Position numbers and translations under genes: made by a program. A stretch of 64,000 nucleotides of DNA, taken from NCBI GenBank assembly GCA_965202645.1, contig OZ241840.1, positions 735,523-799,522 on the forward strand, in the 5' to 3' direction. Shown here in pieces: positions 23,130-38,116 of the stretch. Under the pieces are notes generated by a model that saw only the letters and a program-made list of their open reading frames with translations, was not told the origin of the DNA and made no database searches. The first letter of the stretch is position 1. Each line of letters starts with the position of its first letter. The DNA is from Bdellovibrionales bacterium. Its GTDB lineage: Bacteria; Bdellovibrionota; Bdellovibrionia; Bdellovibrionales; UBA1609.

Positions 23130-23450
23130 AAAGCGCCTCCGCTGATTCTTTTTTATACTGCTCCTGTCTGAAATTTTAGTTTTTTACATCCCTTTTTTTC
23201 AGTCGGCAGGCGAAATCTCTCAAGTTCGGCATCCGGTCATGGAGTTCAGCTTTGAGCAAAGCCACGGCTAAAAGCGGATAGGCGGCAAAACATAAGGCTG
23301 AAAATTATAACCAGACAGCGCTCTTGAGAGATATTATTACCTCGCTAAAGAGCGGAACATTCAAAGTTTTCAAACCAGATCATCATAACATCAAAAATCA
23401 TTGTTAAATCCACAAAAAAAGTGTATATAAAAAACAATAAAGGAGCTCTG

Positions 23451-24146
23451 ATGTCCAGTCAAATCCAATTAACAGCCTCATGGAAAAGCCGGCTTTTGCC
23501 TGAATTTCAAAAAGGCTATATGCAAGACCTTAAAGCTTTTTTGCTGGAGGAAAAACAGAAAAACAAAACAATATATCCCAAGGGTGAGGAGTATTTTTCA
23601 GCTTTGGATCTCACCCCTTTTGAAAAAGTCAAAGTGGTCATACTGGGCCAAGATCCTTATCATGGCCGAGGCCAAGCGCATGGCTTATGCTTTTCCGTTT
23701 TGCCGGGGGTCTCCATACCGCCCTCTCTTGTAAATATTTATAAGGAGCTTCAGCAGGATTTGGGCGTCCCTATAGCCTCTCATGGCTTTTTAAGCTCATG
23801 GGCTAAACAGGGAGTCCTGCTTTTAAACAATACTTTAACTGTGGAGGCGGGAAAAGCCGGCTCTCATAAAGGCCGGGGCTGGGAGATATTTACCGACCGA
23901 ATCATCCAGCTTTTAAATGAGGAGCGAGAGCAGTTGGTTTTTCTCTTATGGGGCCGTCCGGCCGGAGAAAAAGGCTCTATCGTGGATGACTCCAAACACT
24001 GCGTGTTAAAGGCGCCGCATCCCTCCCCCTTTTCAGCGGACAGAGGCTTTTTTGGCTGTAAGCATTTTTCAAAAGCCAATGAGTTTTTAAAATCCAAAGG
24101 GATTGAGCCTGTGGACTGGTCCTCTCACCTCCTGCCTCAAAACTAA
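23451..24146 (+). CDS. ung: Uracil-DNA glycosylase (family 1)
   Basis: [16 protein letters not shown] and HPSPFS motifs. The ATG at 23451 follows AAAGGAG. The track ORF starts earlier, at 23421. Confidence 0.9.
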
Positions 24147-24321
24147 AACTGCCTGAAGGCTCTTTCTGCTCACCAAAAATATATTAAAAACTGATGGACA
24201 ATAGAGCTGAAAAGGCTTAAAATAAAACTATCATACCCCCTTCAAGAAAGAAAAAAATTGATAAAAAGCGGATTATTTGGTAAAATATCAGTTTCCGGCC
24301 TCTTAGGCCAAGTCGGAGAAT

Positions 24322-24447
24322 ATGCAAATTACAGACTATCACGCTAAATACTATGTCCATGAGCTGAAAAAGCGCTGTCAACCGGATGAGAAAAAAGGCA
24401 TTATTCTTAAAAACTTTGAATCAAAAATTTCAAGGAGGCTAAAATGA
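24322..24447 (+). pseudogene. 41-codon stub resembling the N-terminus of an SNF2-type defence-associated helicase; overlaps the Fic start (ATGA)
   Basis: MQITDYHAKYYVHELKKRCQPD... resembles the conserved M-x-L-T-DYHAKYFAHELT-KR N-terminus that I recall from SNF2 helicases found in restriction-like operons. After about 20 aa the similarity ends and a stop follows. An SD (GGAGAA) is present. Confidence 0.35.
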
Positions 24448-25526
24448 GCAAAAAGCCATTCTCGCCAAAGTTTAAAATTACCCAATCTATACTAGGCGCT
24501 TTAATGAAAATTGAGAAAGCCAGGGGGTTTTTAGAAGCGGCCAAATTTTCTGATCAATGGATAAAAAAGATGAGCCAAAACGCCTTGCTTTTAGAGACTC
24601 ATCACACAACCCATATAGAGGGAACTCAGCTTACCCTCAAGCAGTCGGCCAGGATTTTGGCCGGCCATCCTCCTTCCGGAGCGGATAAAGAGGATATAAA
24701 AGAAGTGAAAAATTATAGAGACGCTTTCAATTTGATGGTAAATTATCTAAAAAAAGAGAGTGTGATCAAAGAGTCCCTTATCAAAGAGATTCATAAAGAG
24801 CTGGTCAAAGGGGTTCGGGGAGACCGGGCCAAACCCGGGCGATATAGGGATATACAAAATTATGTGGGAAACGCCGTTACCGGAGAGATTATTTACATGC
24901 CTCCCAAGCCACAGGCTGTCCCCGCTCTTATGAAAGATTTTGTGAAATGGATCAATCAGGAAACAAAGATTCATCCGGTTTTAAAAAGCGGCATTATTCA
25001 GTTTCAGTTTGTTCATATCCATCCTTTTGTTGACGGCAATGGGCGAGCCTCGCGGCTCCTTTGCGCCTTTTATCTCTACAAATCAGATTACGATTTTAAA
25101 AAACTTTTTTCCATCAGTGAATACTACGATAAAAACAGAAGAGGTTTTTACGACGCTATTCAATCTGTGCGAAAAAGCAATATGGATATGACTTTTTGGC
25201 TTGAATATTTTGTAAAAGGGCTATTGTCTCAAATGAATGAGGTTATAGAAGCCGGAAAAAAAGCGATAAGGACGGGCGCTTTTGCGCAAAATCACAATTT
25301 ATCCTCAAGACAAAGCGTCATTGTGGAGCATATTTTAGAAAACGGGAAGCTTCTGCCAAGGGACTTTGAGGCATTGCGGGAGAAAATGGAGCTTTCCGGC
25401 AAAACAATAGCCAAAATAACAAAAAGAACATTTCAGAGGGATTTAAAGGAAATGGTTGAAAAAAAAGCGCTCCGGATTCAAGGGGCAACACATAAAATAT
25501 TTTATATCTTAGGAGATCAAAGCTGA
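24444..25526 (+). CDS. Fic family protein (class II, N-terminal inhibitory helix) with C-terminal wHTH-like region
   Basis: Fic motif HPFVDGNGRASR. Inhibitory motif (S/T)xxxE(G/N) present as TTHIEG. Strong SD (AAGGAGG). Confidence 0.85.
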   Translation: MSKKPFSPKFKITQSILGALMKIEKARGFLEAAKFSDQWIKKMSQNALLLETHHTTHIEGTQLTLKQSARILAGHPPSGADKEDIKEVKNYRDAFNLMVNYLKKESVIKESLIKEIHKELVKGVRGDRAKPGRYRDIQNYVGNAVTGEIIYMPPKPQAVPALMKDFVKWINQETKIHPVLKSGIIQFQFVHIHPFVDGNGRASRLLCAFYLYKSDYDFKKLFSISEYYDKNRRGFYDAIQSVRKSNMDMTFWLEYFVKGLLSQMNEVIEAGKKAIRTGAFAQNHNLSSRQSVIVEHILENGKLLPRDFEALREKMELSGKTIAKITKRTFQRDLKEMVEKKALRIQGATHKIFYILGDQS

Positions 25527-25588
25527 GTTATGCCAGAAACTTTGAAAAATATCTGTAAAAATATAAAACGAGAAAGAGACAAAAATAA

Positions 25589-28525
25589 ATGAAACTCAAA
25601 TTTAATCCTAACCAAAAACATCAACTGGACGCCATATCCGCAATAACGGATCTATTCATTGGCCAGGAGCCTGATTCTTATAAAATTTTTGGTGAGTTCA
25701 TCGGAAGAATCGGTGAATTGTCTGAACTGTCCACATTGGGGGGCGGTTACACCGGAGGATATTACGGCAATAAACTTATTTTAAATAATGCAACCAATAG
25801 AGAAAAAGTCCATGAGCAAATCAACAAAAATCTAAAAGCCGTCCAAAAAAGAAATCAAATCATTTCTCTAGAGAGCGTGGAATCTAAGGGACTGAACTTT
25901 TCCGTGGAAATGGAGACAGGAACAGGAAAAACTTATGCTTATCTCAGAACCATATTTGAATTACACGCTCAATACGGCTTTAAAAAATTTATTATTGTTG
26001 TTCCCTCAGTGGCTGTTAGAGAGGGGGTTTTAAAATCTCTTGAAATGATGAGAGATCATTTTGATGAATTGTATAATAAAACGCCATTTTCCCAATTTGT
26101 TTATCAATCTAAAAAGCCTGGCATACTCAGAGTTTTCGCCAGAGGCAATGATTTGCAAATTATGATTATCAACATAGACGCTTTCAATAAAGACAGCAAC
26201 ATCATCAGACAGCAAAGAGATCATATAGGCGGGGCAAGACCCATTGATTTTATACAAGCTGTGTGTCCCATTGTCATCATTGATGAGCCTCAAAATATGG
26301 AAAGCGAAAAATCCCGCTCCGCCATTGCGTCCCTTAATCCGCTTTTCACCTTGAGATACTCTGCCACACACAGAGATCTTTATAATCCTGTTTATTGTCT
26401 GAACCCTGTTCAGGCTTTTCAAAAAAAGCTGGTTAAGAAAATTTCTGTAGCCTCTGTAGTGGCGGAAAATGATCCTGTGCGAGCATACTTAAAAGTTTTA
26501 AGGATTACGAATAAGAATAATAATTTCCGATGCGCCGTTCAGTTCTTTCAAAACACAAAAGAGGGCCGCAAGCTGACAAAAAAAGTTTGCAAACAGCACG
26601 ATGACCTGTTTGTTCACTCAAAGGAAAATTCAATTTATAAAAACGGATTCAAAATTACAGAAATCAACTGCAAACCCGGAGGAGAGTTTATTAAATTTTC
26701 TAATGGATTGCGGATGTCTCAGAGAGAGGAGCAAGGAGGATTTAAAGAGTCAACGCTTAAAATTCAAATCAAGGAGACTATCAAAGCCCATTTTGAAAAA
26801 GAGTTGCAATTAAAAGGCCGGGGGATAAAAGTTTTATCCCTTTTCTTTTTAGATTGGGTGGAAAACTATAGAATTTACAAGAATGGCCGCGCCTTTTTGG
26901 GGCCTTATGGAAAATGGTTTGAGGAAATTTACAAAACAGTCTCAAAAGAATATGAGAAAGATCTGAATATAACCCCTGTCTCAGAAGCTCATAATGGCTA
27001 CTTTTCAAAAGACAGAAAAGGCGCCTTAAAAAACACAAAAGGAAGCGCTAGAGAAGACGCGGACACTTACAGTTTGATTATGAAAGACAAGGAAAAACTG
27101 CTGGATATAGAAAACCCATTGAAATTTATTTTTTCCCATTCTGCCTTGAGAGAAGGGTGGGATAATCCGAATATTTTTCAAATTTGCGCGCTTAACGAAA
27201 CAGGATCTTCCATTAAAAAAAGACAGGAAATAGGCCGAGGCTTAAGATTGCCGGTTAATCAAGAGGGAAAAAGAATCAAAGATGATCTAATCAACAACCT
27301 AACGGTTGTAGCCAATGAAAGCTACAGCGCTTGGACAGACAGTCTGCAAAAAGAGTTTGAAGCAGACTGCGGAGTTGTCTTTGGAGATCTTCCACTAAAC
27401 GCTTTTATTGGCATGGCTTTTGAAACAAAGGACAAAGAGCGGACAATTACCGCTGAGGAGTCAAAAGAGATATGGGAGCATCTGAAAAAAGCAAATTGCC
27501 TTTCTGAAACCGGATTTATCACAAAACAATTTAATCAAACTGTTCAAAATAACAGCTTTTTTGTCCCAGATAAATTTAAAGCCATTGCCAATAATATCAT
27601 TCAGACATTGGAGCAATATCAGTTGGAATCTCATATAAAAAAGCGTGTAGAGAAAAAAAGAGCGCGCTTAAATCAAAAGGCGCTTTTAGATCCTGAATTT
27701 CAGAAATTCTGGAAAGCCATCGCACAAAAAACAATTTACTCAGTTTATTATGACAGTCAAAAGCTGATTGAAAAAGCTGGCCGCGCAATCAAAAAGAGCG
27801 CTCCTGTTCAACCTCTGCAAATCATCACTCAAACAGCAGATATTGAAGTGCGGTCCAGGGGTGTCAGCGCTCATGCTGTGAAAACAGCTGATTATTCCCC
27901 TCTTCCTGAAAGAGCAAGAGCGCCTGATATCTTGTCTTATATTGAGGAGAAAATCCCTATTACAAAAAAAACTGTTTTAAATATATTAAAACAATCAGAA
28001 AGGCTTGAGGATTTTTCCATCAATCCGCAACAATTTATGGATTTGGCGGTCCAAAAAATAAAAGAAGTTTTACATGGGCTTATAATAGAAGGAATCAAAT
28101 ATGAAAAATTGGATAAAATCTCTTATGAAATGTCTCAATTTACAAAAGATGTGCATCAAATGGAGTTTGTTGGAGATAAAATTATCCCGACTGAAAAATC
28201 TGTTTATGATTATATTTATTATGAATCAGGGATTGAAAAAAAATTTGCTGAGGCTCTTGAAAATATGAGAGATATAAAATACTTTATTAAACTGCCAAAC
28301 TGGTTTAAAGTTCCGACTCCGGTTGGAGATTATAATCCCGATTGGGCCATACTCAAAAAAAATGGGAAAATTGTTTATATGATAAGGGAAACAAAATCCA
28401 CTTTAAAAGAATTAGGTTTGCGCGGTCTGGAAAAAGCAAAAATTAAATGCGGCCAAAGACATTTTGCAAGCATCGGGATCAATTATAAAGTTTGCTCTTC
28501 TGTTAAAGATGCGGATCTGGGGTGA
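25589..28525 (+). CDS. Type III restriction enzyme Res-like helicase/endonuclease subunit (orphan, no Mod gene nearby)
   Basis: 978 aa. Blocks FSVEMETGTGKTYAYLRTIFEL..YGFKKFIIVVPSVAVREGV, IVIIDEPQNM, LRYSATH and HSALREGWDNPNIFQI are typical of Res subunits. The C-terminal region (DYNPDWAIL...IRETK) looks PD-(D/E)xK-like. Confidence 0.8.
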   Translation: MKLKFNPNQKHQLDAISAITDLFIGQEPDSYKIFGEFIGRIGELSELSTLGGGYTGGYYGNKLILNNATNREKVHEQINKNLKAVQKRNQIISLESVESKGLNFSVEMETGTGKTYAYLRTIFELHAQYGFKKFIIVVPSVAVREGVLKSLEMMRDHFDELYNKTPFSQFVYQSKKPGILRVFARGNDLQIMIINIDAFNKDSNIIRQQRDHIGGARPIDFIQAVCPIVIIDEPQNMESEKSRSAIASLNPLFTLRYSATHRDLYNPVYCLNPVQAFQKKLVKKISVASVVAENDPVRAYLKVLRITNKNNNFRCAVQFFQNTKEGRKLTKKVCKQHDDLFVHSKENSIYKNGFKITEINCKPGGEFIKFSNGLRMSQREEQGGFKESTLKIQIKETIKAHFEKELQLKGRGIKVLSLFFLDWVENYRIYKNGRAFLGPYGKWFEEIYKTVSKEYEKDLNITPVSEAHNGYFSKDRKGALKNTKGSAREDADTYSLIMKDKEKLLDIENPLKFIFSHSALREGWDNPNIFQICALNETGSSIKKRQEIGRGLRLPVNQEGKRIKDDLINNLTVVANESYSAWTDSLQKEFEADCGVVFGDLPLNAFIGMAFETKDKERTITAEESKEIWEHLKKANCLSETGFITKQFNQTVQNNSFFVPDKFKAIANNIIQTLEQYQLESHIKKRVEKKRARLNQKALLDPEFQKFWKAIAQKTIYSVYYDSQKLIEKAGRAIKKSAPVQPLQIITQTADIEVRSRGVSAHAVKTADYSPLPERARAPDILSYIEEKIPITKKTVLNILKQSERLEDFSINPQQFMDLAVQKIKEVLHGLIIEGIKYEKLDKISYEMSQFTKDVHQMEFVGDKIIPTEKSVYDYIYYESGIEKKFAEALENMRDIKYFIKLPNWFKVPTPVGDYNPDWAILKKNGKIVYMIRETKSTLKELGLRGLEKAKIKCGQRHFASIGINYKVCSSVKDADLG

Positions 28526-28782
28526 AGGAAAAAATTAGAGCGTGTCCTCATTTTCAAGTTTAAAATATAGAATGAAGAGAAAATACTTAACAGCATTCAA
28601 ATAAATAACTTGCTCCGCGCCCACTTTACAAAAAAAAGGAGAATCTATAATAGGCCTGTTTACAAAAATCATGAGCAAATTCTCTAATAAAGTTGAGTCT
28701 GATAACCCTGCCATTGAAAATGCAATAAAAGCCTATTTTTGAAAAAATCCTATTTCAAGCTTGAGAGGTAAAAAAATAGTCT

Positions 28783-29692
28783 TTAAATATCCCAAGGCCC
28801 CAGAGCTTTCCAATATTTTGGCAAACGCTTTTTTGTTGTAAGAGCTTTCACTATAGGCAAAAGAAATAATTTTAAAGATTCTATAACATCAGAAAAAGAG
28901 GGGGAATCCTTCTGATCCAATGTTTTTATAAAAACATTCCACTCCTTTTCTTTCTTTTTTATAAATTCCTGATTAAAGGCCGTAATTTCTTGTTTTAAAG
29001 AGGCGCCTCTATTTTTAAAGGTCAGATCAATAGCTTTTGATAACCTATGGCCTTCAAAGTTGTATTCTCGGGATAATATCCATAAGTCATAAAAGTCTTT
29101 CATCCGACTATTCCAGTCTCCTAACTTCATCAGAGCTTCAAATTTTTCCGCAACAATACTTTCCAAACTATAACACCAAAGCTTAGGGGCGGGAAAATCC
29201 AAGATACAAGGAAAAGCCATTTTCTTTAGGTTCAGGAAAAATGACATCATGAAAGCTTATATCAATTTGCATATTGATTTTTGCTGAATCCAAAGTCCCA
29301 TAAAATAACACCCGTATACCCTTATAAGAGGCATCTCTTTTAATATCCTCAAGGCAAATGCTTTGTGAATCAAAGACAAGACCATCTTCTTCTGCTTTGA
29401 TAGATAGAACATCTTTTATTTGTTTTATTATTTCAGATGCTTCATCATTTCTTTTTTGTGATATATCAATATCCATAGTGGGACGAAACTTCTCTGCTTT
29501 TCTAACTTGCAGAGCTAAAGCTCCCTTAAGAATAAAAGAGTCCACATAATCAGATTGAGATAAACGATACAAAAACCTCTCTATAGCATAATACTGCAAA
29601 AGCTCATTAAAAGGCCTTTTGTCTTTTCTGGATATATTTAAAAGCCTCTGCCTCACAGAGGCCGGAACATTTGTAATTTGTTTTTTTGTCAT
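28783..29692 (-). pseudogene. AbiEii/DUF1814 nucleotidyltransferase toxin, split by a frameshift
   Basis: Two overlapping ORFs (29183-29692 and 28783-29250) together give a full-length AbiEii-like protein (N-part ...RQRLLNISRK...ERFLYRLSQS...ILKGALAL...RPTMDIDI; C-part ...SIVAEKFEALM...). The frame changes within 29183-29250. Confidence 0.7.
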
Positions 29693-30309
29693 ATTATGCT
29701 TTCTATATAAGGTTTCATAACATTTTTAATATGGCATACTTTTGCATATTTGATCAATTTTGAAGGATTAAATGTTTTTCTTTCTCTATAAAAAGCCAAG
29801 GCTTCCAAAACAACGCTCATGCCAATTTTATTTCTAAATTTAAAACAATCCACTACTGTTTTTTCAGGGTTGTATATTTTAACAGGGATTTTATCAAAAA
29901 TATATGTGTCAGCGCCTGAAGAAAAACTTTGACTAGAAAATTGATGAATAGAAACAGGAGGATAATCTATTCTGGGTCTGTGAGCGCCTCGTTTTACAGC
30001 TACCCAAATTTTATGAGGAATCTGTGTTGTTAAATTATGAAAAGCCAAAGCGGAAATTAAACAAATAATCCCATTTGGAGCTCTTAAGGCCACTGTCACA
30101 AAATCAGGATGAGAAACCTTATTTTGTTTTAATTTATATAAACCATAAGAAATTTGCTCTAAAACCCCTTTATCCCTCAAGCTATATAAAGTTCTTGGAT
30201 GAATATGTTTTTTTATGGCTTCATTGGCCTTTATAATGCCCTTATTGGCTTTTATAATATGAACGGCATTTTTTTCTTTAGAGGCATTCATGGATAAAAA
30301 CCTTTTCAT
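29689..30309 (-). CDS. AbiEi-family antitoxin / transcriptional regulator (type IV TA)
   Basis: 206 aa. It sits immediately upstream of AbiEii with a 4-nt overlap. The N-terminal wHTH-like segment (IHPRTLYSLRDKGVLEQISYGLYKL) and C-terminal domain pattern fit AbiEi_4. Confidence 0.7.
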   Translation of the reverse strand: MKRFLSMNASKEKNAVHIIKANKGIIKANEAIKKHIHPRTLYSLRDKGVLEQISYGLYKLKQNKVSHPDFVTVALRAPNGIICLISALAFHNLTTQIPHKIWVAVKRGAHRPRIDYPPVSIHQFSSQSFSSGADTYIFDKIPVKIYNPEKTVVDCFKFRNKIGMSVVLEALAFYRERKTFNPSKLIKYAKVCHIKNVMKPYIESII

Positions 30310-30435
30310 TTATTTATATATGAGTATAATCTTATCCATATTTAGAATAAAATCAAGAATAAAGCTATAAAATTATCAGAAAAAGCCTCGTTTTCATTCA
30401 GAATGCCCAAAATAAAGGCCATTAAATTTGATAAA

Positions 30436-30516
30436 GAGCGGCCCCGATCCCTAATTGATTGAACAGGAGGGGCTAAACTTTAAACCTTTCCTGTTCAATC
30501 AATGGGGCTCAGTTCA
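30436..30516. mobile_element. MITE-like hairpin derived from an IS3-family terminal repeat
   Basis: attgattgaacagg (30454-30467) and cctgttcaatcaat (30490-30503) are perfect inverted repeats around a 22-nt loop. The right arm continues as cctgttcaatcaatggggctcagttca, about 90% identical to the IS3-type end at 63631-63658. Confidence 0.6.
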
Positions 30517-30762
30517 AACCTTTTCAAAAAAAACAAGAGCCTGCCGGATACCGGAAATAGCCGGCCAAATCATCCTTAAAACTTAAAAAAATCTCTGCGC
30601 CTAACAGGCTGTTCCTCCCTCGCCACCGGGTTTTGATCGGAAAAAATCGCTTATTTTTAGCCTTTCATTTCAATTTAAAGCCACAGCCCCTGGGTATGGA
30701 ATCTTTTTTGCTATGTGTATATAGCTGGAGCTTATCTCAAACAAAAAGAAAGGAGAATAATT

Positions 30763-31638
30763 ATGAAAAACCAAGCGTTTCGCCTTAAAGATCTAAAAAA
30801 AGATCGGGTTTTCAGATACTATTTTAAAAAATATGAGGATGATCTGATTCATCTGCTGAACAGCTTTCTTCCCCTCCCTGATAAAACAGCAATCAAGAAG
30901 ATCAAGCTGTTGGATGAGCAATTTCAGCCTGATGATTTCACAAAAAAAGAAAGCCTGATGGATATTCGTGTGGATTTAGACAGTCAAGGCTTAGCCAATG
31001 TGGAGATGCAGAGGATTCCGGAAAAATACTTTAGGTCTCGGGCATTATTTTACGCCTCTAGACTGCTGGGCTCGCAGTTGGAGAAAGGGGCGAAGTATGA
31101 GCGGATTCAGCCGGTATATTCCTTATTATTTTGCGGCAGGTCTTTATTTCCTGAGCTGAGGGAGCATTACAGCGTATTCAGTTTAAGGTGCGACACTCGG
31201 CCGGATATTTTATGGACGAGGGATTTAAGGCTTGTATTGGTGCAGTTGGATCAATTTCGGAAGAGTTTAGATAATTTGGTTGATAATGTGGATAGGTGGT
31301 GTTATATTTTAAAGAAGGCCCCCCAGCTGGATGAGCTGGAGTTTAAGAGGCTCTCTGGCAGTGGCGGGGGATTTGGAGGTATTATGTGGCATTTGCGAAA
31401 GCTTTCGGAGGATGAGAAGGCCAAAATACTGGAGGAGTATGAGGAGATGAGGTGGCGGGATGAGCAAGCTCGTCTGGATGGCGCAGAGGAAAGGGGAATG
31501 AAAAAAGGCATAGAGCAGGGCATGAGGCAAACAGCTTTGCGAATGCTTAAAAAAAACCTTGATCCCGCTCAAATTTCAGAGTGGACAGGCTTGTCTGAAG
31601 AGGAAGTTAAAGCCCTAAAAAAGAGGGATTGTTTTTGA
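30763..31638 (+). CDS. Rpn-family recombination-promoting nuclease / PD-(D/E)xK putative transposase
   Basis: DRVFRYYFKK...LLNSFL, K.SLMDIRVDLDSQGLANVEMQ, RALFYASRLL..Q and the C-terminal GMKKGIEQGMRQTAL...LDPAQISEWTGLSEEEV tail are characteristic. The ATG at 30763 follows AAAGGAG. Confidence 0.8.
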   Translation: MKNQAFRLKDLKKDRVFRYYFKKYEDDLIHLLNSFLPLPDKTAIKKIKLLDEQFQPDDFTKKESLMDIRVDLDSQGLANVEMQRIPEKYFRSRALFYASRLLGSQLEKGAKYERIQPVYSLLFCGRSLFPELREHYSVFSLRCDTRPDILWTRDLRLVLVQLDQFRKSLDNLVDNVDRWCYILKKAPQLDELEFKRLSGSGGGFGGIMWHLRKLSEDEKAKILEEYEEMRWRDEQARLDGAEERGMKKGIEQGMRQTALRMLKKNLDPAQISEWTGLSEEEVKALKKRDCF

Positions 31639-31865
31639 TCCGCGCCACAGGGGACAGCGCCAGTCTCGTCAATGATGAGAGCTTTAAGCTAAAGGTTTTT
31701 GCTTAATCAAACAAGCCCGTTTATTTTCTTTCATGCAATCAAGCTATACAGCCTGTGGCTGGCATTATCATCAGGCAATATGCCTCTCTCCGCCTATAGA
31801 TTAAGCCCTAAGCTTTTTGCTCCCGCCCCGGCCATCTATTTGCACTGGCACACCATGATTGCTTT

Positions 31866-32054
31866 TCAGTTTCGATCAAGTTTGGCTTTTATCTCTTTTA
31901 GATCTTCTTTTATGCTGGCTGAAAGCTTATCAATTTTTTTGTTTGTGTCTGTGATATGATTGTCCAAATTCTCTTTTATATGGCCGATCTCTTGATTTAA
32001 AAGCTCAAACTTATGGCCGATCTTTATGTAAAGAAACCAAAACAAAGCTTTCAA
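31866..32054 (-). CDS. Small coiled-coil protein (paralog 2 of 3), probably N-terminally damaged
   Basis: Encodes ...IKENLDNHITDTNKKIDKLSASIKEDLKEIKAKLDRN. About 38 nt around the NHITDTNKKIDKL motif are ~90% identical at DNA level to 11681-11715. It starts at a TTG, and a hydrophobic N-terminus (MIMPLGFSFESFVLV) lies in another frame just upstream, suggesting a frameshift. Confidence 0.4.
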   Translation of the reverse strand: MKALFWFLYIKIGHKFELLNQEIGHIKENLDNHITDTNKKIDKLSASIKEDLKEIKAKLDRN

Positions 32055-32133
32055 AGCTGAAACCTAAAGGCATAATCATTGACAGCTCTAAAAATACGCT
32101 TTCGTTTATAGAAGGAGAGTGAACAGCTCTTTT

Positions 32134-33318
32134 TCACTTATGAGAAAAGGTAGAGTTAAAGTCCTCCTTTAAATTTTTGCAAAAAAAATCAAAAGGCCAA
32201 ATTTCAACTCCCTGTTCAGTTTTCCTTATAGTCTGGCCTAAATACACAACGATCCGCCTTTTAACAGCCGGCAATTTGCTAATAGCTTTTAGCCCTCTAT
32301 AATCTTGAGGGGAAACTTGAGTTTTAGCCTTAACCTCAATGGCTATTAAGTCCCCTCCCCGCTTAAGCAAAAAATCAACTTCTGTTTTTTTTGCTTCCGA
32401 AGAAGACCAATAATAAATATCATCATAAAGCTCCCGATAATCTTTATACGCCCGTAAGAGCTGAGCTATTAAGCCTTCAAAAAGAAAGCCTTTTTCCTCA
32501 ACAGAAACCGGGCCAAAGTTTTTCTTTAAAGCTCGCGCAATTCCGGGATCAATAAAATAAAATTTACTGCTTTTTTGCTCTTTCACACGGAGTTTTGGAT
32601 AATAGGCGGGCAAGAAAAAGCCTAGCATTGTATCCTCTAAAATAGAAAAAAAATCGCAAGCGCAGTGTCTGGAAATTTGAGAATCTCTCGCGACAGCAGT
32701 CATGTTTACAACTTGCCCATGACATAAGCCGGCTACTTCCAAAAAGCGGGCAAAAGCCGGCAAATCTCTCGCTAAAGCCTCAGCTTTAATTTCCTCTGTA
32801 AGATAGGTTTCAGTATAAGCTTTTAATTTACTGCCTCTGTCAGCGGAAGACCACACAATCGGGAGCAAGCCATAGCGCAAAGCCTGGCTTAAATCAAAAT
32901 CCTCCCCTAATTCTTCAGGAGTAAAAGGATGAAGCAATTTTTTGCCCGCCCGGCCGCCTAAAAGGTTTACTCCTTTAGCGGCTTTAATTTTGCGGGCGCT
33001 GGAGCCTGTGAAAATAAAACGGCGCTGGGAAGATTCAATAAGACGATGAGCCTCATCTAAAAGCTGAGGTATTTTTTGAATCTCATCCACAATAACCAAG
33101 CCATCATTTTTGAAAGCGTTGACTTTTTCATAAAACTGCCCAATATTGGACAAATAGCTCTGATAGATAGACGCATCTAAAAGATCAATATAAAGGACTG
33201 AAGGTGAAGACGGAGGAAAAAGCTTTTTTAAAAGCTGAGTTTTGCCGCTTCCTCTAACTCCAAACAGAAAAATGTTGTCGTTATCTGAAATTTTAATAAT
33301 CCGATTTTTTAAAATCAT
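32134..33318 (-). CDS. AAA+ ATPase with DUF4143-type C-terminal domain
   Basis: Walker A GVRGSGKTQLL, Walker B VIVDEIQ. The C-terminal part (YYWSSSEAKKTEVDFLLKRGGDLIAIEVK) is typical of the AAA_14/DUF4143 family, with a restriction-endonuclease-like fold. Confidence 0.75.
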   Translation of the reverse strand: MILKNRIIKISDNDNIFLFGVRGSGKTQLLKKLFPPSSPSVLYIDLLDASIYQSYLSNIGQFYEKVNAFKNDGLVIVDEIQKIPQLLDEAHRLIESSQRRFIFTGSSARKIKAAKGVNLLGGRAGKKLLHPFTPEELGEDFDLSQALRYGLLPIVWSSADRGSKLKAYTETYLTEEIKAEALARDLPAFARFLEVAGLCHGQVVNMTAVARDSQISRHCACDFFSILEDTMLGFFLPAYYPKLRVKEQKSSKFYFIDPGIARALKKNFGPVSVEEKGFLFEGLIAQLLRAYKDYRELYDDIYYWSSSEAKKTEVDFLLKRGGDLIAIEVKAKTQVSPQDYRGLKAISKLPAVKRRIVVYLGQTIRKTEQGVEIWPFDFFCKNLKEDFNSTFSHK

Positions 33319-34077
33319 ATTACAATTTTCGCCGATTTTTTAAAATTATTTTACAATTTTCGTAGATTTTTTTAAAAAAGTCAAAGAAAATCGTCTATTT
33401 TTCCGTAAAAACACGATTTTTTAGGAAATTATATACCTAACACAGCAAAAAATCTGTGACAGCCTTTAAATATAAGGCTTATAGGAGGTTTTAATGATTT
33501 CGCTCAAAAAGCGGGTGCAAAATATGGAATTTAATATAAAGTGTTGATTTTGCTTTTAACTTTTTTTGCGTATAAACCGCTCAAGGCGCAAAAATGCTGT
33601 GTCAAATATATAATTCCCGATTTTTTAGCTCTTTTCATTATTGTTGGCTTATATTTCCACAATATTATCCGCCGATGATAAAAAAGCCCCTGTCATAAAT
33701 CTCTCTAACTTTGCGACATGTTTGCGACAAAGTTTGCGACATATTCATGCTATGAGGGCTTACAAATATAGACGGGGTGGGAAAACAGCCTATCAAGGGA
33801 AAATCACGCTATACAGCAGAGAATTAGACGATCCGCTGCTTAAGAGCTGGCGCCGCGGGCAGAGAGATCAAACAAAAGAAAAGAGATTGAGACAAGCTTG
33901 TTATGGCTGTTTAAGCGGCCTCCCGGCGAGAGGAGATTAAGCCTCAATGGTTTGCCTCCCGCTCCGGCCAGTTTAGTCCACGGCGGGCTTTGCTCAGTGT
34001 ATAGTTGCAGGTAATGATAATATAGTGAATATTAAGATACGCGCGAGCAAAAAAAGCGAGAAAGATAAAGGATCAGG

Positions 34078-34174
34078 TTGACTTCTCCTAAAAGTGAATG
34101 ATATATAGAAGATAACCTTCCCACTTGTTTCGGTGAGTGGGTGCGAGCCGGCGCAAGCCGGCTTTCGCGTTTTT
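34078..34174 (+). promoter_or_regulatory. Promoter plus two-hairpin leader/sRNA ending in a U-run, 6 nt before the NYN start codon
   Basis: TTGACT (34078-34083), an 18-nt spacer, TATATA (34102-34107). Hairpin 1 is cccact/agtggg (34120-34141). Hairpin 2 is gcgagccggc-GCAA-gccggctttcgc (34143-34168, GNRA loop), followed by gttttt. No SD lies between it and the ATG at 34180. Confidence 0.5.
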
Positions 34175-34179
34175 AAGCT

Positions 34180-34824
34180 ATGAAAACAATCGTATATATT
34201 GATGGCTGGAATCTTTATTATCGCGTCCGGAACGCTCCCTATAAGTGGCTAAATCTTAAAAAATTAGTCCAGTTTTATTTGCCCAAAAAACACAATGTCA
34301 TAAAAATCAAGTATTTTACCGCAAGAACGCAAAGTTTGCCGGAAGATCCTTTAAAAGACACCAGACAGGATATATATTTGAGAGCTATTAAAACTATTCC
34401 TCATTTAGAAGTTATTTTTGGCCAGTTTAAAAAAAGGCAAATAACAGGCTTGCGCTGTCATTATAAAAATGGGCGGTATGTGGAGGGGACTGAACTTATA
34501 ACTATTAGCAAATGGGAAGAGAAAGAGACAGATGTAAATATCGCGACCCATATTCTCGCGGACACACCACAGTATGATTGTGCTGTTTTAATTTCCAATG
34601 ACACAGATTTGAGAGCGCCATTAAAACATATAAAGAAAATCTTAAGAAAAAATGTTGGAATTATAAGCCCGCGAAGGAATATTCATATAGAATTAAGAAA
34701 TGCCAGCCATTTTCAAAAAAGAATATCCAATCAAATTTTAGAGCGATGCCAATTTCCTGAGATAATGAGAGATATCAAAGGAGAGTTCTTTTGCCCGCCA
34801 AAGTGGAAACAGATAAAGGGTTAA
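34180..34824 (+). CDS. NYN domain (LabA/PIN-like) protein
   Basis: The N-terminus MKTIVYIDGWNLYY and the later EKETDVNIA...VLISNDTDL supply the acidic residues characteristic of NYN/PIN-like nucleases. Confidence 0.75.
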   Translation: MKTIVYIDGWNLYYRVRNAPYKWLNLKKLVQFYLPKKHNVIKIKYFTARTQSLPEDPLKDTRQDIYLRAIKTIPHLEVIFGQFKKRQITGLRCHYKNGRYVEGTELITISKWEEKETDVNIATHILADTPQYDCAVLISNDTDLRAPLKHIKKILRKNVGIISPRRNIHIELRNASHFQKRISNQILERCQFPEIMRDIKGEFFCPPKWKQIKG

Positions 34825-34906
34825 ACAAACTGGTTGTTTCCCTGCCTGCGCTTTTCAAATAAAAAAAACCTGCCATGAGAGAGGCTTTTTTCCCTCACTC
34901 CACCGC

Positions 34907-35056
34907 TTAAAAAATAGGGTAAAGGGCCGGCAGGACAGGAGCTGTTTCCACAGCCAAAATAATTAAGCCTAAAGCCAAGAGAGCCAAAATCAAAGGGATC
35001 AGCCAATATTTTTTTCTGATCGCTATAAACTTTATAATGTCCTTTATAAACGCCAT
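34907..35056 (-). CDS. DUF5989-family small membrane protein (49 aa)
   Basis: Found by translating a frame not in the track: MAFIKDIIKFIAIRKKYWLIPLILALLALGLIILAVETAPVLPALYPIF-stop. The RKK[FY]WL[LI]P[IL]IL pattern and its position after carbamoyltransferase/SxtJ fit DUF5989. This replaces the listed ORF 34821-35075. Confidence 0.65.
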   Translation of the reverse strand: MAFIKDIIKFIAIRKKYWLIPLILALLALGLIILAVETAPVLPALYPIF

Positions 35057-35130
35057 AAGCCAGCGCTCCTTCCAATATGACAGCCGCTTTGGCTTATAAT
35101 GTTCTTGATAACACCCATAAGCCAGCGCCT

Positions 35131-35361
35131 TTAAAATGGGTTTTTAAAATGATCCGGAGGCAGTGGAGGAGATTTTTTAAGCCAGCTGGCCCTTATCTTT
35201 GGGCGGGGATAAAATAGCCTTAAAAAAACCCTTCTGATTATGGCTGTTGGAGTTAAAATCATCCACCAGATTATGGCCAGAAAAAAGAATATAACAAACC
35301 GGTTCCACAAAGACACATATTTAATCCATGATTTTTTTATAGAGCGTCTATTCATAAGCAT
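35131..35361 (-). CDS. SxtJ-like small membrane protein
   Basis: 76 aa with one or two TM segments. C-terminal pattern ILTPTAIIRRVF...SWLKK and the position directly after a carbamoyltransferase support the call. Confidence 0.45.
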   Translation of the reverse strand: MLMNRRSIKKSWIKYVSLWNRFVIFFFLAIIWWMILTPTAIIRRVFLRLFYPRPKIRASWLKKSPPLPPDHFKNPF

Positions 35362-35397
35362 TTACCGCTTCTTTATTATTTTAAGCGAACAGCCTTG

Positions 35398-37266
35398 TCA
35401 ATCCGGCTTCAGGCTGGAGATATACAAATCTTTGGATTTTATTTTTTGATCCTCTTTTCTTAACACACAGTCTTCTATAACACAAAGATCCAGGCCTGTA
35501 TTCATAAAACAGCGATAGGCTTCATAAGGAGAGCGGACAATAGGCTCTCCGCGAACATTAAAAGAGGTGTTGATCAGCCCCGGGCAGTTTGTTTTTTTGT
35601 AAAAGGCCTCTATGAGCTTTTTAAATCTAGGGTGAGCGCTTTGCCCCACAGTCTGTATTCTTGAGGAGTAATCCGCATGGACCGCGGCGGGCAAAGGGGA
35701 TTTGACAATATCTTGCTTGTCCAGCCCTTTAGCGCGTTTGACTCGCTCCCCGTTTTTTCTATGGCGGGGCAGAGTGTATGAGACCAACAGCATATAAGGG
35801 CTTTCCATTGGCTCAAAAAAATCAGCTGTTTTTTCCTCCAAAATACTAATGGCAAAAGGGCGGAAAGACTCCCTAAATTTTATTTTTTGATTCATTTGTT
35901 TTTGTATATGCTCTAAGCGGGCATCCGCCAAAATAGAGCGACAGCCTAAAGCTCTCGGGCCAAATTCCATAGCCCCCTGAAACCACCCAACAACTTTAGC
36001 CTTTAAAATTTCATCAACAACAAGGGAAATAAGCTCCTCCTCTTTATATGTTTTATAAACAGCGCCCTCCTGAGTGAGAATTTCCTCCACAGATGGGGAG
36101 GAGTAAGAGGGTCCCAACAAAGCCCCTTTCATGGAGTCCGGCTTCCGGGGATGGCGCGGCTTCCTCAAAAATTCATGCCATGCGCTGTAGGCGGCGCCCA
36201 AGGCCCCGCCGGCGTCTCCCGCCGCAGGCTGTATCCATAACGATTTAAAGGGGCTTTGGCTTAAAATTTTTTGGTTAGCGACACAGTTGAGAGCCACTCC
36301 TCCAGCCATGCACAAACTGCTGGCTTTTGTGTTTTGATAAAGCGTCCGGCTGAGTTTAACGACAGCCTCCTCAATAATTTGCTGAGCGGAGGCGGCGACA
36401 TTCATATAATGAATATCGATCTCTGTTTGAGAATCCGTCCGGCGGGGAGCTTTGTTTAAGAGTTTTTGCAAAAGGGGGCTGAACATTTGATGAGAATGCG
36501 GATAGCTAAAATACTCCATATTTAACTGAAAGCTTCCGTCCTCTTTAATGTCAATCAGATGCTCTTTAAAAAGGGAAACAAATATCGGCTCTCCATAAGG
36601 GGCTAAGCCCATAAGCTTATATTCCCCGGAATTAACCTTAAAGCCGCAATAATCAGTGAAAGCGGAATAAAACAGGCCCAGAGAATGGGGAAAGTCTATT
36701 TGCCAAAGAGGCTCAATTTGCGCTTTATCGCCCATCCAAGCTGAAGTTGTAGCCCACTCTCCAACGCCGTCCAGACACAAAATAGCGGCTGACTTATAAG
36801 GGCTGGGGTAAAACGCTGAAGAGGCGTGAGACAAATGATGATAATTAAAGAGAATTTCCGGAGCCTCTTTTTTAGAAATGGCAAAAGCTTTTGAGAGCTT
36901 TTTCTTTATCAAGGAGCGAATATTTAATTTTCCCCCCAGCCATACGGGCATGGCTTGTTTAAAAGAGGCAAAGCCTTTAAACGGGGCATAATCCATGTAG
37001 GTTTCAATGAGCCGCTCAAAAGTCAAAAAAGGCTTGTCATAGTAAGCGATATAATCGATTTGCCTTAAAGCCTCCTGATGGGAGATTGGCTTAGGGGATA
37101 ATTTGGAAATTTGATCCAGACAAAACCGAAAGGAATGAATGGGAAAGCTTGAATCATGCTTTTTTCTTGTCCATCTCTCCTCCTGAACAGCGCAAATTAA
37201 TTCTCCATCATCAATAAGAGAGCAAGCGCTGTCATGATAAAAAGCGGAAAGGCCAAGTATTGTCAT
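35398..37266 (-). CDS. Carbamoyltransferase (NodU/CmcH family)
   Basis: MTILGLSAFYHDSACSLIDDGELICAVQEERWTRKKHDSSFP, plus the HHLSHA, GGVALN and NTSFN(V/I)RGEPIV blocks. Confidence 0.9.
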   Translation of the reverse strand: MTILGLSAFYHDSACSLIDDGELICAVQEERWTRKKHDSSFPIHSFRFCLDQISKLSPKPISHQEALRQIDYIAYYDKPFLTFERLIETYMDYAPFKGFASFKQAMPVWLGGKLNIRSLIKKKLSKAFAISKKEAPEILFNYHHLSHASSAFYPSPYKSAAILCLDGVGEWATTSAWMGDKAQIEPLWQIDFPHSLGLFYSAFTDYCGFKVNSGEYKLMGLAPYGEPIFVSLFKEHLIDIKEDGSFQLNMEYFSYPHSHQMFSPLLQKLLNKAPRRTDSQTEIDIHYMNVAASAQQIIEEAVVKLSRTLYQNTKASSLCMAGGVALNCVANQKILSQSPFKSLWIQPAAGDAGGALGAAYSAWHEFLRKPRHPRKPDSMKGALLGPSYSSPSVEEILTQEGAVYKTYKEEELISLVVDEILKAKVVGWFQGAMEFGPRALGCRSILADARLEHIQKQMNQKIKFRESFRPFAISILEEKTADFFEPMESPYMLLVSYTLPRHRKNGERVKRAKGLDKQDIVKSPLPAAVHADYSSRIQTVGQSAHPRFKKLIEAFYKKTNCPGLINTSFNVRGEPIVRSPYEAYRCFMNTGLDLCVIEDCVLRKEDQKIKSKDLYISSLKPD

Positions 37267-37584
37267 AAAAAAATAACTCTTAATCCGGCGATGGCTATTA
37301 TTATACTGATTGAGTTTTGAGATTTCACGGCTTTTTAGCTGTCCCCCGATAATTTTCAGATAGCCCTCGTTTTGGCGCTGAGGGAATCTAAAGCGAGTCC
37401 CTCCACATTAGCCCTCGTTTTGGCGCTGAGGGAATCTAACCAAAACCCTGATAACATTTTCAAATGCTGTCCGCCTTCCGGCTCCTCTAAAACACAAAGC
37501 CTCTTTTGTAATTCTTGAAAAATCACACGGGCCCGCGCGCTCAGAAGCTGTTTAACGATTTTATTTGTTTTCAAGCATTGCCGT

Positions 37585-37938
37585 TTAAGAGGATTTGCCG
37601 GCGGGCGGATATTTTATGGCGTTTTTAGCCAGCTTGTCCTCTAAACAGCTGGCCAGATCAAAATTATAAAGCTGGGCAAATCTCAAAAGAAAGCATAGAG
37701 TGTCTGCCAGCTCCTCGCTTATTCTCTCTCTCATTGGCTCATCCTGTGTCATTTTATAGCTTTGCTCTTCAGAATGAAAGCGAAAAATATCCAACAGCTC
37801 ACAAGCCTCTGTAGCCATTCCAATAGCTAAATCTTTGGGATTGTGGGGCTTGTCCCAATGCCTTTGAGAGCAAAACTCAGCAACTGTTTCCTTTAAGCCT
37901 TCCAAAGAGACATGGCTGTCTTTTTTTAAATTATCCAT
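37585..37938 (-). CDS. MazG-like nucleotide pyrophosphohydrolase (all-alpha NTP-PPase)
   Basis: 117 aa. The pair ATEACELLDIF and ELADTLCFLLRFA carries the EExx(E/D) metal-binding helices. Confidence 0.7.
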   Translation of the reverse strand: MDNLKKDSHVSLEGLKETVAEFCSQRHWDKPHNPKDLAIGMATEACELLDIFRFHSEEQSYKMTQDEPMRERISEELADTLCFLLRFAQLYNFDLASCLEDKLAKNAIKYPPAGKSS

Positions 37939-38116
37939 AATTGAATCTCCTTATCTTTTAATTGAAAATTTTTTAAGCAAAGCGCTCACCCATGACCCCA
38001 TTTAAGCGAATGCTTTTCCTTATTTCAAAGAGAAAGACTGCGCTTTTTTCAGGACCGGCATCCCTATCCCTATCCTTAGGAGCCGCTACAGCCAGTCCTC
38101 GGCGGAAGATGCCTTT

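Follow-up and report, generated by a model that had tools for sequence, protein, structure and literature searches.

The window analysed here is a stretch of 64,000 nucleotides from a Bdellovibrionales bacterium (contig OZ241840.1 of assembly GCA_965202645.1). Judged from its sequence, the segment 34078-34824 of the window is best explained as a self-contained two-gene cassette, in which a gene for a structured small RNA is followed by a gene for an NYN ribonuclease. The features of the cassette are the following.

34078-34083, + strand: -35 hexamer TTGACT of the small-RNA promoter, read from the sequence
34099-34107, + strand: extended -10 element TGaTATATA (TG at 34099-34100, TATATA at 34102-34107), read from the sequence
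34115-34174, + strand: predicted small RNA of about 60 nt (covariance-model match at 34113-34177)
34120-34141, + strand: hairpin 1, with a 9-bp stem, a UUCG loop and a CCC(C)/GGG base (RNAfold)
34143-34168, + strand: hairpin 2, GC-rich, with a GCAA loop and a bulged UU (RNAfold and terminator scan)
34170-34174, + strand: terminator U-run, U5 (terminator scan; a G precedes the run and the tail spans 34169-34174)
34180-34824, + strand: gene for an NYN (PIN-like) ribonuclease of the HEC-09 family, 214 aa (PF01936, PADLOC PDLC04163)

The promoter lies where the original prediction had put it, with an 18-nt spacer between TTGACT and TATATA, and in addition it has an extended -10 element. The promoter scan accepts only -10 hexamers that end in T and thus leaves this promoter, whose hexamer ends in A, unlisted. 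Transcription would start at a conserved A located 8 nt past the -10 hexamer, and the 3′ end of the RNA would fall within the U-run. Hairpin 1 had been described as a cccact/agtggg stem; this pairing is present, but the stem is longer than that, with nine pairs between the arms CCCACUUGU and GUGAGUGGG, including G-U pairs, and a UUCG loop at its tip. Hairpin 2, with the sequence GCGAGCCGGC-GCAA-GCCGGCUUUCGC and the conserved base GCGAG.../...CGC, folds in RNAfold as the GC-rich, GCAA-capped structure that had been proposed at this place. It also serves as the stem of an intrinsic terminator, and the terminator scan calls hairpin 2 together with its tail. The terminator-like U-run that had been claimed ahead of the NYN gene can be read in the sequence, as can the lack of a Shine-Dalgarno motif before the NYN ATG (34180, 6 nt beyond the U-run), where the pre-start sequence is UUUUUAAGCUAUG. 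The window carries a single RNA unit and no repeat array, and RNAfold gives both hairpins with a free energy of -32.8 kcal/mol (z = -3.5 against dinucleotide shuffles).

No + strand gene is found upstream of the cassette for about 2.5 kb, the nearest + strand ORF ending at 31638. A minus-strand gene is located between that ORF and the cassette. The cassette adjoins a DUF4143/PDC-S01 ATPase and a carbamoyltransferase, a PD-(D/E)XK protein is also encoded nearby, and at a greater distance upstream come AbiEi, a type III restriction enzyme and Fic. The defence-island setting recognised at the outset is therefore borne out by the type III restriction enzyme, Fic, AbiEi and the PDC-S01 ATPase. Homologues of the NYN gene are found in 387 plasmid records, and many of these records are 3.4-4.6 kb long. 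Both the defence-island setting and the carriage on plasmids are compatible with a toxin-antitoxin or defence role. The sequencing runs covering the window (X1-X4) and the locus of one relative (X12-X16) display a flat, DNA-like depth.

The ORF had been identified as an NYN protein, and the profile searches agree. PF01936 is matched with an E-value of 1.3e-10 from residue 2 onwards, and the PADLOC profile PDLC04163 (HEC-09) is matched over its full length with an E-value of 4.7e-39 (residues 2-209 on positions 3-202 of 203). An AF2 model of the protein (pLDDT 96.5) has the NYN fold. Its best fold matches are VPA0982 (PDB 2qip) and the NYN domains of MARF1 (PDB 5yaa, 6fdl), with Foldseek E-values from 4e-9 to 2e-4. 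As had been stated, NYN is not a known type III toxin: PF01936 is the sole Pfam match, and the fold search with the model returns NYN/PIN-like proteins only. The window protein has the acidic active site in common with MARF1 NYN and VPA0982. Residues D8, E114, D118, D141 and D143 are invariant among 86 NYN homologues and, on the evidence of sequence and model, the nuclease active site is intact. Unlike these structures, the window protein has at residues 82-115 a 34-residue Lys/Arg-rich β-hairpin arm, and its C-terminal tail carries the conserved motif SQFP...P..W. Neither arm nor tail is covered by MARF1 NYN or VPA0982, and the TM-score normalised to the query is about 0.5. In the model, the basic arm could be the part of the protein that holds RNA.

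For the RNA, a 67-position covariance model (R1) was built from 12 copies with the structure supplied by hand, since a MAFFT-only alignment shifted hairpin 2 out of register; R2 is a broader model. The motif in the window (34113-34177) scores 67.8 bits with R1 and 52 bits with R2, and an R1 search yields 96 matches in 91 loci. In the R1 alignment of these 96 copies, 91.7% of the cells are paired, against 73.1% in shuffles, and double compensatory changes are observed in 19 of the 20 pairs (9/9 in hairpin 1 and 10/11 in hairpin 2). The covariation score is 0.538, compared with 0.199 in shuffles (none of 500 reaches 0.538) and 0.05-0.12 when the pairing partners are slid, all covariation being counted on the model-fitted alignment, which leans towards the structure. 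RNAalifold, run on the plain MAFFT alignment, predicts both hairpins independently, with only 15 pairs. About 12% of the paired cells are G-U, from summed pair counts. As these would become A-C mismatches on the opposite strand, the structure is specific to one strand, the one that bears the promoter. Such strand specificity points to a structure formed by RNA. It is this conservation in relatives, and not the window sequence alone, that establishes the motif as real beyond chance.

The consensus reads A-Y-C-C-CCCC, stem 1, UUCG, stem 1′, GGG, Y, GCGAGGCC, loop, GGCCUCUGC, UUUUU. Its strongest sequence conservation is at the bases of the two helices, and the tetraloops are conserved or stable, the UUCG loop of hairpin 1 being found in about 85% of the copies. 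The lower stem of hairpin 2, GCGAGGC/GCCUCUGC, is kept across phyla, and U occurs at 83-93% at the positions of the U-run (96 copies). An A four bases ahead of CCCC, present in 86% of the copies, sits at the expected transcription start. Rfam 15 contains no match to the motif at E<=1, either for window positions 30000-38000 or for the loci of 10 relatives. Two Rfam matches that were returned, mir-3136 and mir-1275, are chance hairpins away from the motif. A guide RNA could also be ruled out, as the RNA has no variable single-stranded segment and its loops are mostly UUCG or GNRA.

How closely is this RNA tied to the nuclease? Among 301 genomes of the same phylum, NYN homologues are present in six, and ahead of each stands the same architecture, its stems differing in sequence. 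Strong RNA matches (E<1e-9) occur in exactly these six genomes, and five others of the 301 have marginal RNA matches only (E ~1e-4). A wider profile search, with one genome per species, gave more than 581 NYN relatives, of which 80 loci were kept. These come from more than 10 phyla, including Chloroflexota, Acidobacteriota, Gemmatimonadota, Verrucomicrobiota, Planctomycetota, Pseudomonadota, Bdellovibrionota, Armatimonadota, Actinomycetota and others. The motif can be seen by eye ahead of most of the 80 loci, and under default filters R1 places a match adjoining NYN in 75 of them. The five R1-negative loci consist of two that are cut by contig ends (L025 and L065), two in which the RNA is found with R2 and weakly with R1 (L082 and L084), and one (L072) with a diverged copy, recognised by eye, that has its own promoter and terminator. 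A further nine NYN copies from Dehalococcoidia and Acidobacteriota were missed by R1 or matched weakly; with R2, an RNA is found beside all nine. No intact NYN gene without a candidate RNA was encountered in the genomes and loci examined. The original prediction had named as a check the presence of the same structure, with compensatory changes, upstream of NYN homologues, and the outcome is strongly positive.

No other conserved neighbour was found, the largest flanking family being present in 5 of the 80 loci. A third protein component is ruled out on the same count. With no conserved protein neighbour, the cassette consists of the RNA and NYN alone. There is good support for the structured RNA gene and for its partnership with NYN, and we regard both as nearly certain.

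The RNA also behaves as a gene in its own right. A sigma-70 promoter that matches at 9 or more of 12 positions is located at a fixed distance from the motif in 50 of the 96 copies, compared with 1 of 94 stretches of control DNA taken 200 nt further upstream, and the -10 hexamer ends 11-15 nt ahead of the first invariant C. The proposal of a discrete unit, made up of promoter, structured RNA and terminator and tied to NYN, is thus upheld, and the promoter of this unit is its own and is conserved. The arrangement of RNA and nuclease gene varies among the 80 loci as follows.

Same strand, RNA immediately upstream of NYN: 63 of 80 loci, with a median of 12.5 nt from the model end to the NYN match
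Same strand, with two to three RNA copies: 4 of the 63
Same strand, with an additional downstream RNA copy: 1 of the 63
Divergent: 8 of 80 loci, in Acidobacteriota
Convergent, RNA just downstream of NYN: 4 of 80 loci, in Actinomycetota and others
R1 match absent under default filters: 5 of 80 loci

In the convergent loci, the 3′ end of the RNA and that of the NYN ORF share a few bases (offsets of -8 to +2). A mycobacterial example is the prophage prophiGD43A-1, in which NYN is gene 6, with the integrase on one side and the immunity repressor on the other; here the RNA is again convergent and just downstream of NYN, with its own promoter. An earlier view of the RNA as a leader of NYN therefore describes most loci, where it is upstream on the same strand, but not the 12 of 80 loci, nor the mycobacterial prophage, where it is on the opposite strand. 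Tandem copies are found as well. Dehalococcoidia carry two to three tandem copies of promoter plus RNA, and one locus (L045) has three tandem RNA copies, each with its own promoter. The statement that the RNA is not tandemly repeated thus holds for the single unit of the window but not for the family, in which 2-3.6 tandem units or 2-3 copies occur. Taken together, the promoter of its own, the freedom of orientation and the tandem copies indicate that the RNA is encoded by an independent partner gene and is not just a leader.

RNA and nuclease gene differ in how they persist. The genome of the window has seven RNA copies, each with promoter and terminator, and two intact NYN genes. One NYN paralogue (48% identity) stands behind the same promoter, two hairpins and U-run, and a 78%-identical copy of promoter and leader is followed only by a degenerate 5′ stub of NYN; two orphan RNAs in this genome precede such 5′ stubs. 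In a second genome (G219), six RNA matches accompany an intact NYN gene in two cases, a split one in one case and a truncated one in another; the remaining two matches are weaker and have no NYN match nearby. Three more genomes (G306, G312 and G317) contain intact RNAs beside a truncated NYN gene or without any NYN. The orphan copies retain promoter and structure. An asymmetry in which the RNA persists and NYN decays is what would be expected, on sequence grounds, if prior loss of the RNA were lethal. It would partly fit an RNA with a second role too, and it rests on few complete genomes. RNA copies also occur in IMG/VR (three strong and two weak), where one record is a provirus rated complete and another record is rated 84% complete. 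No NYN was found anywhere in the RNA-bearing IMG/VR records. PHROGs gave nothing informative on the neighbours of these RNA-only copies, so their phage nature is that of the IMG/VR classification. They would fit decoy antitoxins, and equally mere orphans. Decoys of this kind would be reminiscent of the pseudo-ToxI RNAs of phages.

What, then, might the RNA do for the nuclease? The reading that we favour, with a probability of roughly 55%, is that it acts as a type III-like, inhibitory RNA antitoxin for an NYN RNase toxin, as suggested by the sequence and by analogy with known systems. The sigma-70 promoter would drive synthesis of an RNA of about 60 nt consisting of a 5′ A, hairpin 1 with its CCCC/GGG base, hairpin 2 with the base GCGAGG/CCUCUGC and a bulged pyrimidine, and its own intrinsic terminator. 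Only a minority of transcripts, those running past this terminator, would yield NYN, and these would be poorly translated, there being no Shine-Dalgarno sequence. The terminator ahead of NYN would thereby hold the RNA in large excess over the protein. In ToxIN, likewise, it is read-through of the terminator that yields the toxin, so that the RNA is necessarily in excess. Read-through is the simplest route of expression for NYN because the same-strand layout leaves no room for an NYN promoter, although it is possible that such a promoter is hidden within the RNA gene. The RNA would bind NYN through the conserved bases of its helices and keep the RNase inactive, much as type III antitoxins do and as RCd22 does for AbiF. 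Once transcription of the cassette stopped, upon phage take-over or upon loss of the plasmid or prophage, the RNA would decay and NYN would be freed. The free RNase would then cut cellular or phage RNA, leading to growth arrest or abortive infection. Counted against the antitoxin reading are the NYN fold, which is unrelated to ToxN, CptN and TenpN, and the single RNA unit of the window. HEC-09 is counted on the same side, the only published test having found no protection from the phages tried.

Why does an intact NYN gene nearly always keep this RNA at its side? It is possible, though improbable, that the RNA is an obligatory positive subunit without which NYN would be unable to act, for instance a scaffold, a specificity factor or a sensor. 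A subunit would explain the near-obligatory linkage whatever the orientation, the sequence conservation at the helix bases would suggest a specific protein-RNA interface, and HEC-09 cloned with its native upstream region was reported to show neither toxicity nor defence. However, a subunit predicts that broken RNAs beside intact NYN genes should be equally common, and only RNA without NYN is seen; the RNA-only copies in viral records are hard to account for in the same terms. The RNA also lacks a variable single-stranded segment that could guide the nuclease, its loops being mostly UUCG or GNRA. A terminator before the nuclease gene and RNA genes in several copies, a design for RNA excess, fit an inhibitor better than a stoichiometric subunit. 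Alternatively, the element might be mainly a cis-acting leader, either an attenuator or a structure that NYN cleaves in a feedback loop, with the small RNA as a by-product; we consider this slightly less probable again. Nuclease genes such as rnc and rne set their own expression by feedback. In 63 of 80 loci the RNA immediately precedes NYN on the same strand, at a median of 12.5 nt from the NYN match, the SD-less ATG of the window is 6 nt past the U-run, and RCd22, too, acts in cis on abiF. Still, cis action cannot operate in the eight divergent and four convergent loci or in the mycobacterial prophage, orphan copies keep both promoter and structure, and some viral records contain the RNA alone. 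Nor was an alternative antiterminator pairing evident on a non-rigorous look.

That the RNA controls the NYN mRNA by base pairing, as a type I-like antisense RNA, is less probable than either of these. The overlap of a few bases between the RNA 3′ end and the end of the NYN ORF (offsets -8 to +2) would suit it in the convergent loci, and in several loci the C-rich 5′ end could, by eye, pair with G-rich ribosome-binding regions past the terminator. However, antisense overlap is absent from the same-strand and divergent loci, which make up about 90% of the total; the C-run is locked in the stem of hairpin 1, and the conserved positions are structural and not complementary to the mRNA. Finally, the element might have no specific function and be just a chance hairpin or an ordinary terminator. 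Hairpin 2 and the U-run do form a canonical intrinsic terminator, and the original prediction had itself allowed for the terminator of an upstream + strand transcript. The chance of this is negligible, as there is no + strand gene upstream for the element to end, the motif has its own promoter, and it covaries in more than 10 phyla, where it is specifically linked to NYN.

The inhibitory antitoxin reading places the cassette close to known RNA-based toxin-antitoxin systems. The type III systems ToxIN, CptIN and TenpIN share with it the order of promoter, structured RNA, intrinsic terminator and endoribonuclease gene, which in those systems gives an RNA excess. This type III-like gene order, as originally put forward, is observed in the window and in 63 of the 80 loci, with the terminator between RNA and NYN. 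The NYN module is likewise found on plasmids, in prophages and in defence islands, and in its relatives on E. coli plasmids the terminator comes after RNA repeats of about 33 nt arranged in tandem. The toxin fold differs, however, being NYN/PIN-like here and that of ToxN/AbiQ, CptN or TenpN in the type III systems. The RNA usually consists of one two-hairpin unit with its own start, in contrast to a toxin-processed repeat array, and its gene can be divergent or convergent. None of the Rfam type III antitoxin families matches window positions 30000-38000 or the loci of 10 relatives. Since the toxin folds were compared and differ, the cassette is not a member of ToxIN, CptIN or TenpIN; it resembles them in layout.

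RCd22, from a C. difficile prophage, neutralises AbiF by direct binding, whether in cis or in trans (PMC12373285). As in the NYN cassette, a structured, non-repeat ncRNA is located immediately upstream of the protein gene (PMC12373285). AbiF is a toxic RNA-targeting protein with an Abi_2 fold, structurally linked to ancestral Cas13, and thus differs from NYN. The abiF motif, RF03085, has no match at E<=1 in window positions 30000-38000 or in the loci of the 10 relatives. HEC-09 was described as a single-protein candidate defence gene, found embedded in Hma systems; its product has a MARF1-like NYN domain in which the aspartates are conserved (Payne et al., bioRxiv 10.1101/2024.01.29.577857). 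With the phages tested no defence was seen, and the study reports neither toxicity nor an RNA (bioRxiv 10.1101/2024.01.29.577857). In contrast, the window gene is outside any Hma (helicase-methylase-ATPase) system and has an RNA partner, embedding in Hma being the context in which HEC-09 was discovered and not a requirement of the family.

In the literature searched, no paper ties NYN to an RNA antitoxin or to type III systems, and this layout of RNA and RNase is found neither there nor in Rfam. AbiF/RCd22 was added only in 2025. To our knowledge, no more than three toxin families have so far been distinguished among type III systems. A paper from 2026 names tenpIN as one of the classes (PMC13682666). 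It is tempting, if rather tentative and at somewhat less than even odds, to go one step further and regard NYN and its RNA as a new and very widespread type III-like family, with a toxin fold new to that role, that is distributed over more than 10 phyla and over plasmids and prophages by the hundred from enterobacteria, Xanthomonas, Leptospira and mycobacteria, with the stand-alone RNAs of viruses and proviruses as decoy antitoxins. If the antitoxin reading is true, NYN would be a new fold among the toxins and its RNA a new one among the antitoxins. HEC-09 would become a two-component system, which would change what has to be cloned and tested. As the NYN-linked RNA is absent from Rfam, genome annotation currently overlooks it. 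The natural variants (cis, divergent, convergent, tandem, orphan and viral) amount to ready-made experiments. The antitoxin reading would also account for an unannotated RNA that many phyla contain and that is carried by very small E. coli and Klebsiella plasmids, on which the pair may serve as an addiction or defence module. Such small plasmids include a 4.6-kb ColE1-type plasmid of E. coli, in which a 33-nt unit, composed of a hairpin-1-like element and an A-rich linker ending in CCCC, is repeated 2.6-3.6 times ahead of NYN and is followed by the terminator, and a 3.5-kb E. coli plasmid with two full RNA units in tandem ahead of NYN.

On contig C1 of the source genome (G000), the small-RNA gene is found at five further positions, each copy having its own promoter and terminator and none an intact NYN gene. 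In two of these copies, a short remnant of the 5' part of the NYN gene follows the RNA.

Further small-RNA gene copies on contig C1 (position; locus; features)
104680; L109; promoter and terminator, short NYN 5' remnant after the RNA
1150360; L113; promoter and terminator, without intact NYN
1162347; L115; promoter and terminator, without intact NYN
1942402; L095; promoter and terminator, without intact NYN
2133566; L106; promoter and terminator, short NYN 5' remnant after the RNA

The RNA gene also stands without its nuclease partner in viral records: the three IMG/VR contigs L121, L124 and L128 hold a complete RNA gene with promoter and no NYN gene anywhere in the record, and a PHROG search with the ORFs neighbouring these RNA copies gave no informative matches. 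In Mycobacterium phage prophiGD43A-1 (L138, 2501-3189), the NYN protein is encoded by gene 6, annotated as a ‘hypothetical protein’ and flanked by the integrase on one side and the immunity repressor on the other; a small-RNA gene lies downstream in convergent orientation. On plasmids, an NYN homologue is present in 387 records, 207 of them from Klebsiella. Two tiny enterobacterial plasmids carry tandem RNA units 5' of the NYN gene, a 33-nt unit repeated 2.6-3.6 times in E. coli plasmid pRHB40-C03_3 (L120, 570-720) and two full two-hairpin units in pKMi006_5 (L119, 290-405).

Within the window, the RNA-NYN cassette is preceded by a run of defence-type genes (23421-33318).

Genes upstream of the cassette (window positions)
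23421-24146, uracil-DNA glycosylase, ahead of the defence-type run
24444-25526, Fic protein, in the run
25589-28525, type III restriction endonuclease, in the run
28783-29692, two short overlapping ORFs ahead of AbiEi, which may be a split AbiEii
29689-30309, AbiEi, in the run
30715-31638, PD-(D/E)XK_2 protein, in the run
32134-33318, minus strand, DUF4143/PDC-S01 ATPase, in the run

Between AbiEi and the PD-(D/E)XK gene lies a long near-perfect hairpin (30446-30510), probably either a terminator or a repeat; its match to an Rfam microRNA family is at chance level, scoring 27 bits where the gathering score is 86. Directly 5' of the ATPase gene lies a dispersed repeat of ~210 nt (33417-33626), with at least 23 copies across the genome at 70-90% identity, over which read depth rises in the DNA sequencing runs. 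Possible readings of this repeat are a MITE-like element and a shared regulatory region. Further along, in the 860-nt gene-free stretch 5' of the small-RNA promoter, TTTGCGACA occurs as three direct copies (33710-33741) with a spacing of 11-12 nt, roughly one helical turn, an arrangement that looks like a regulator binding site or a set of iterons.
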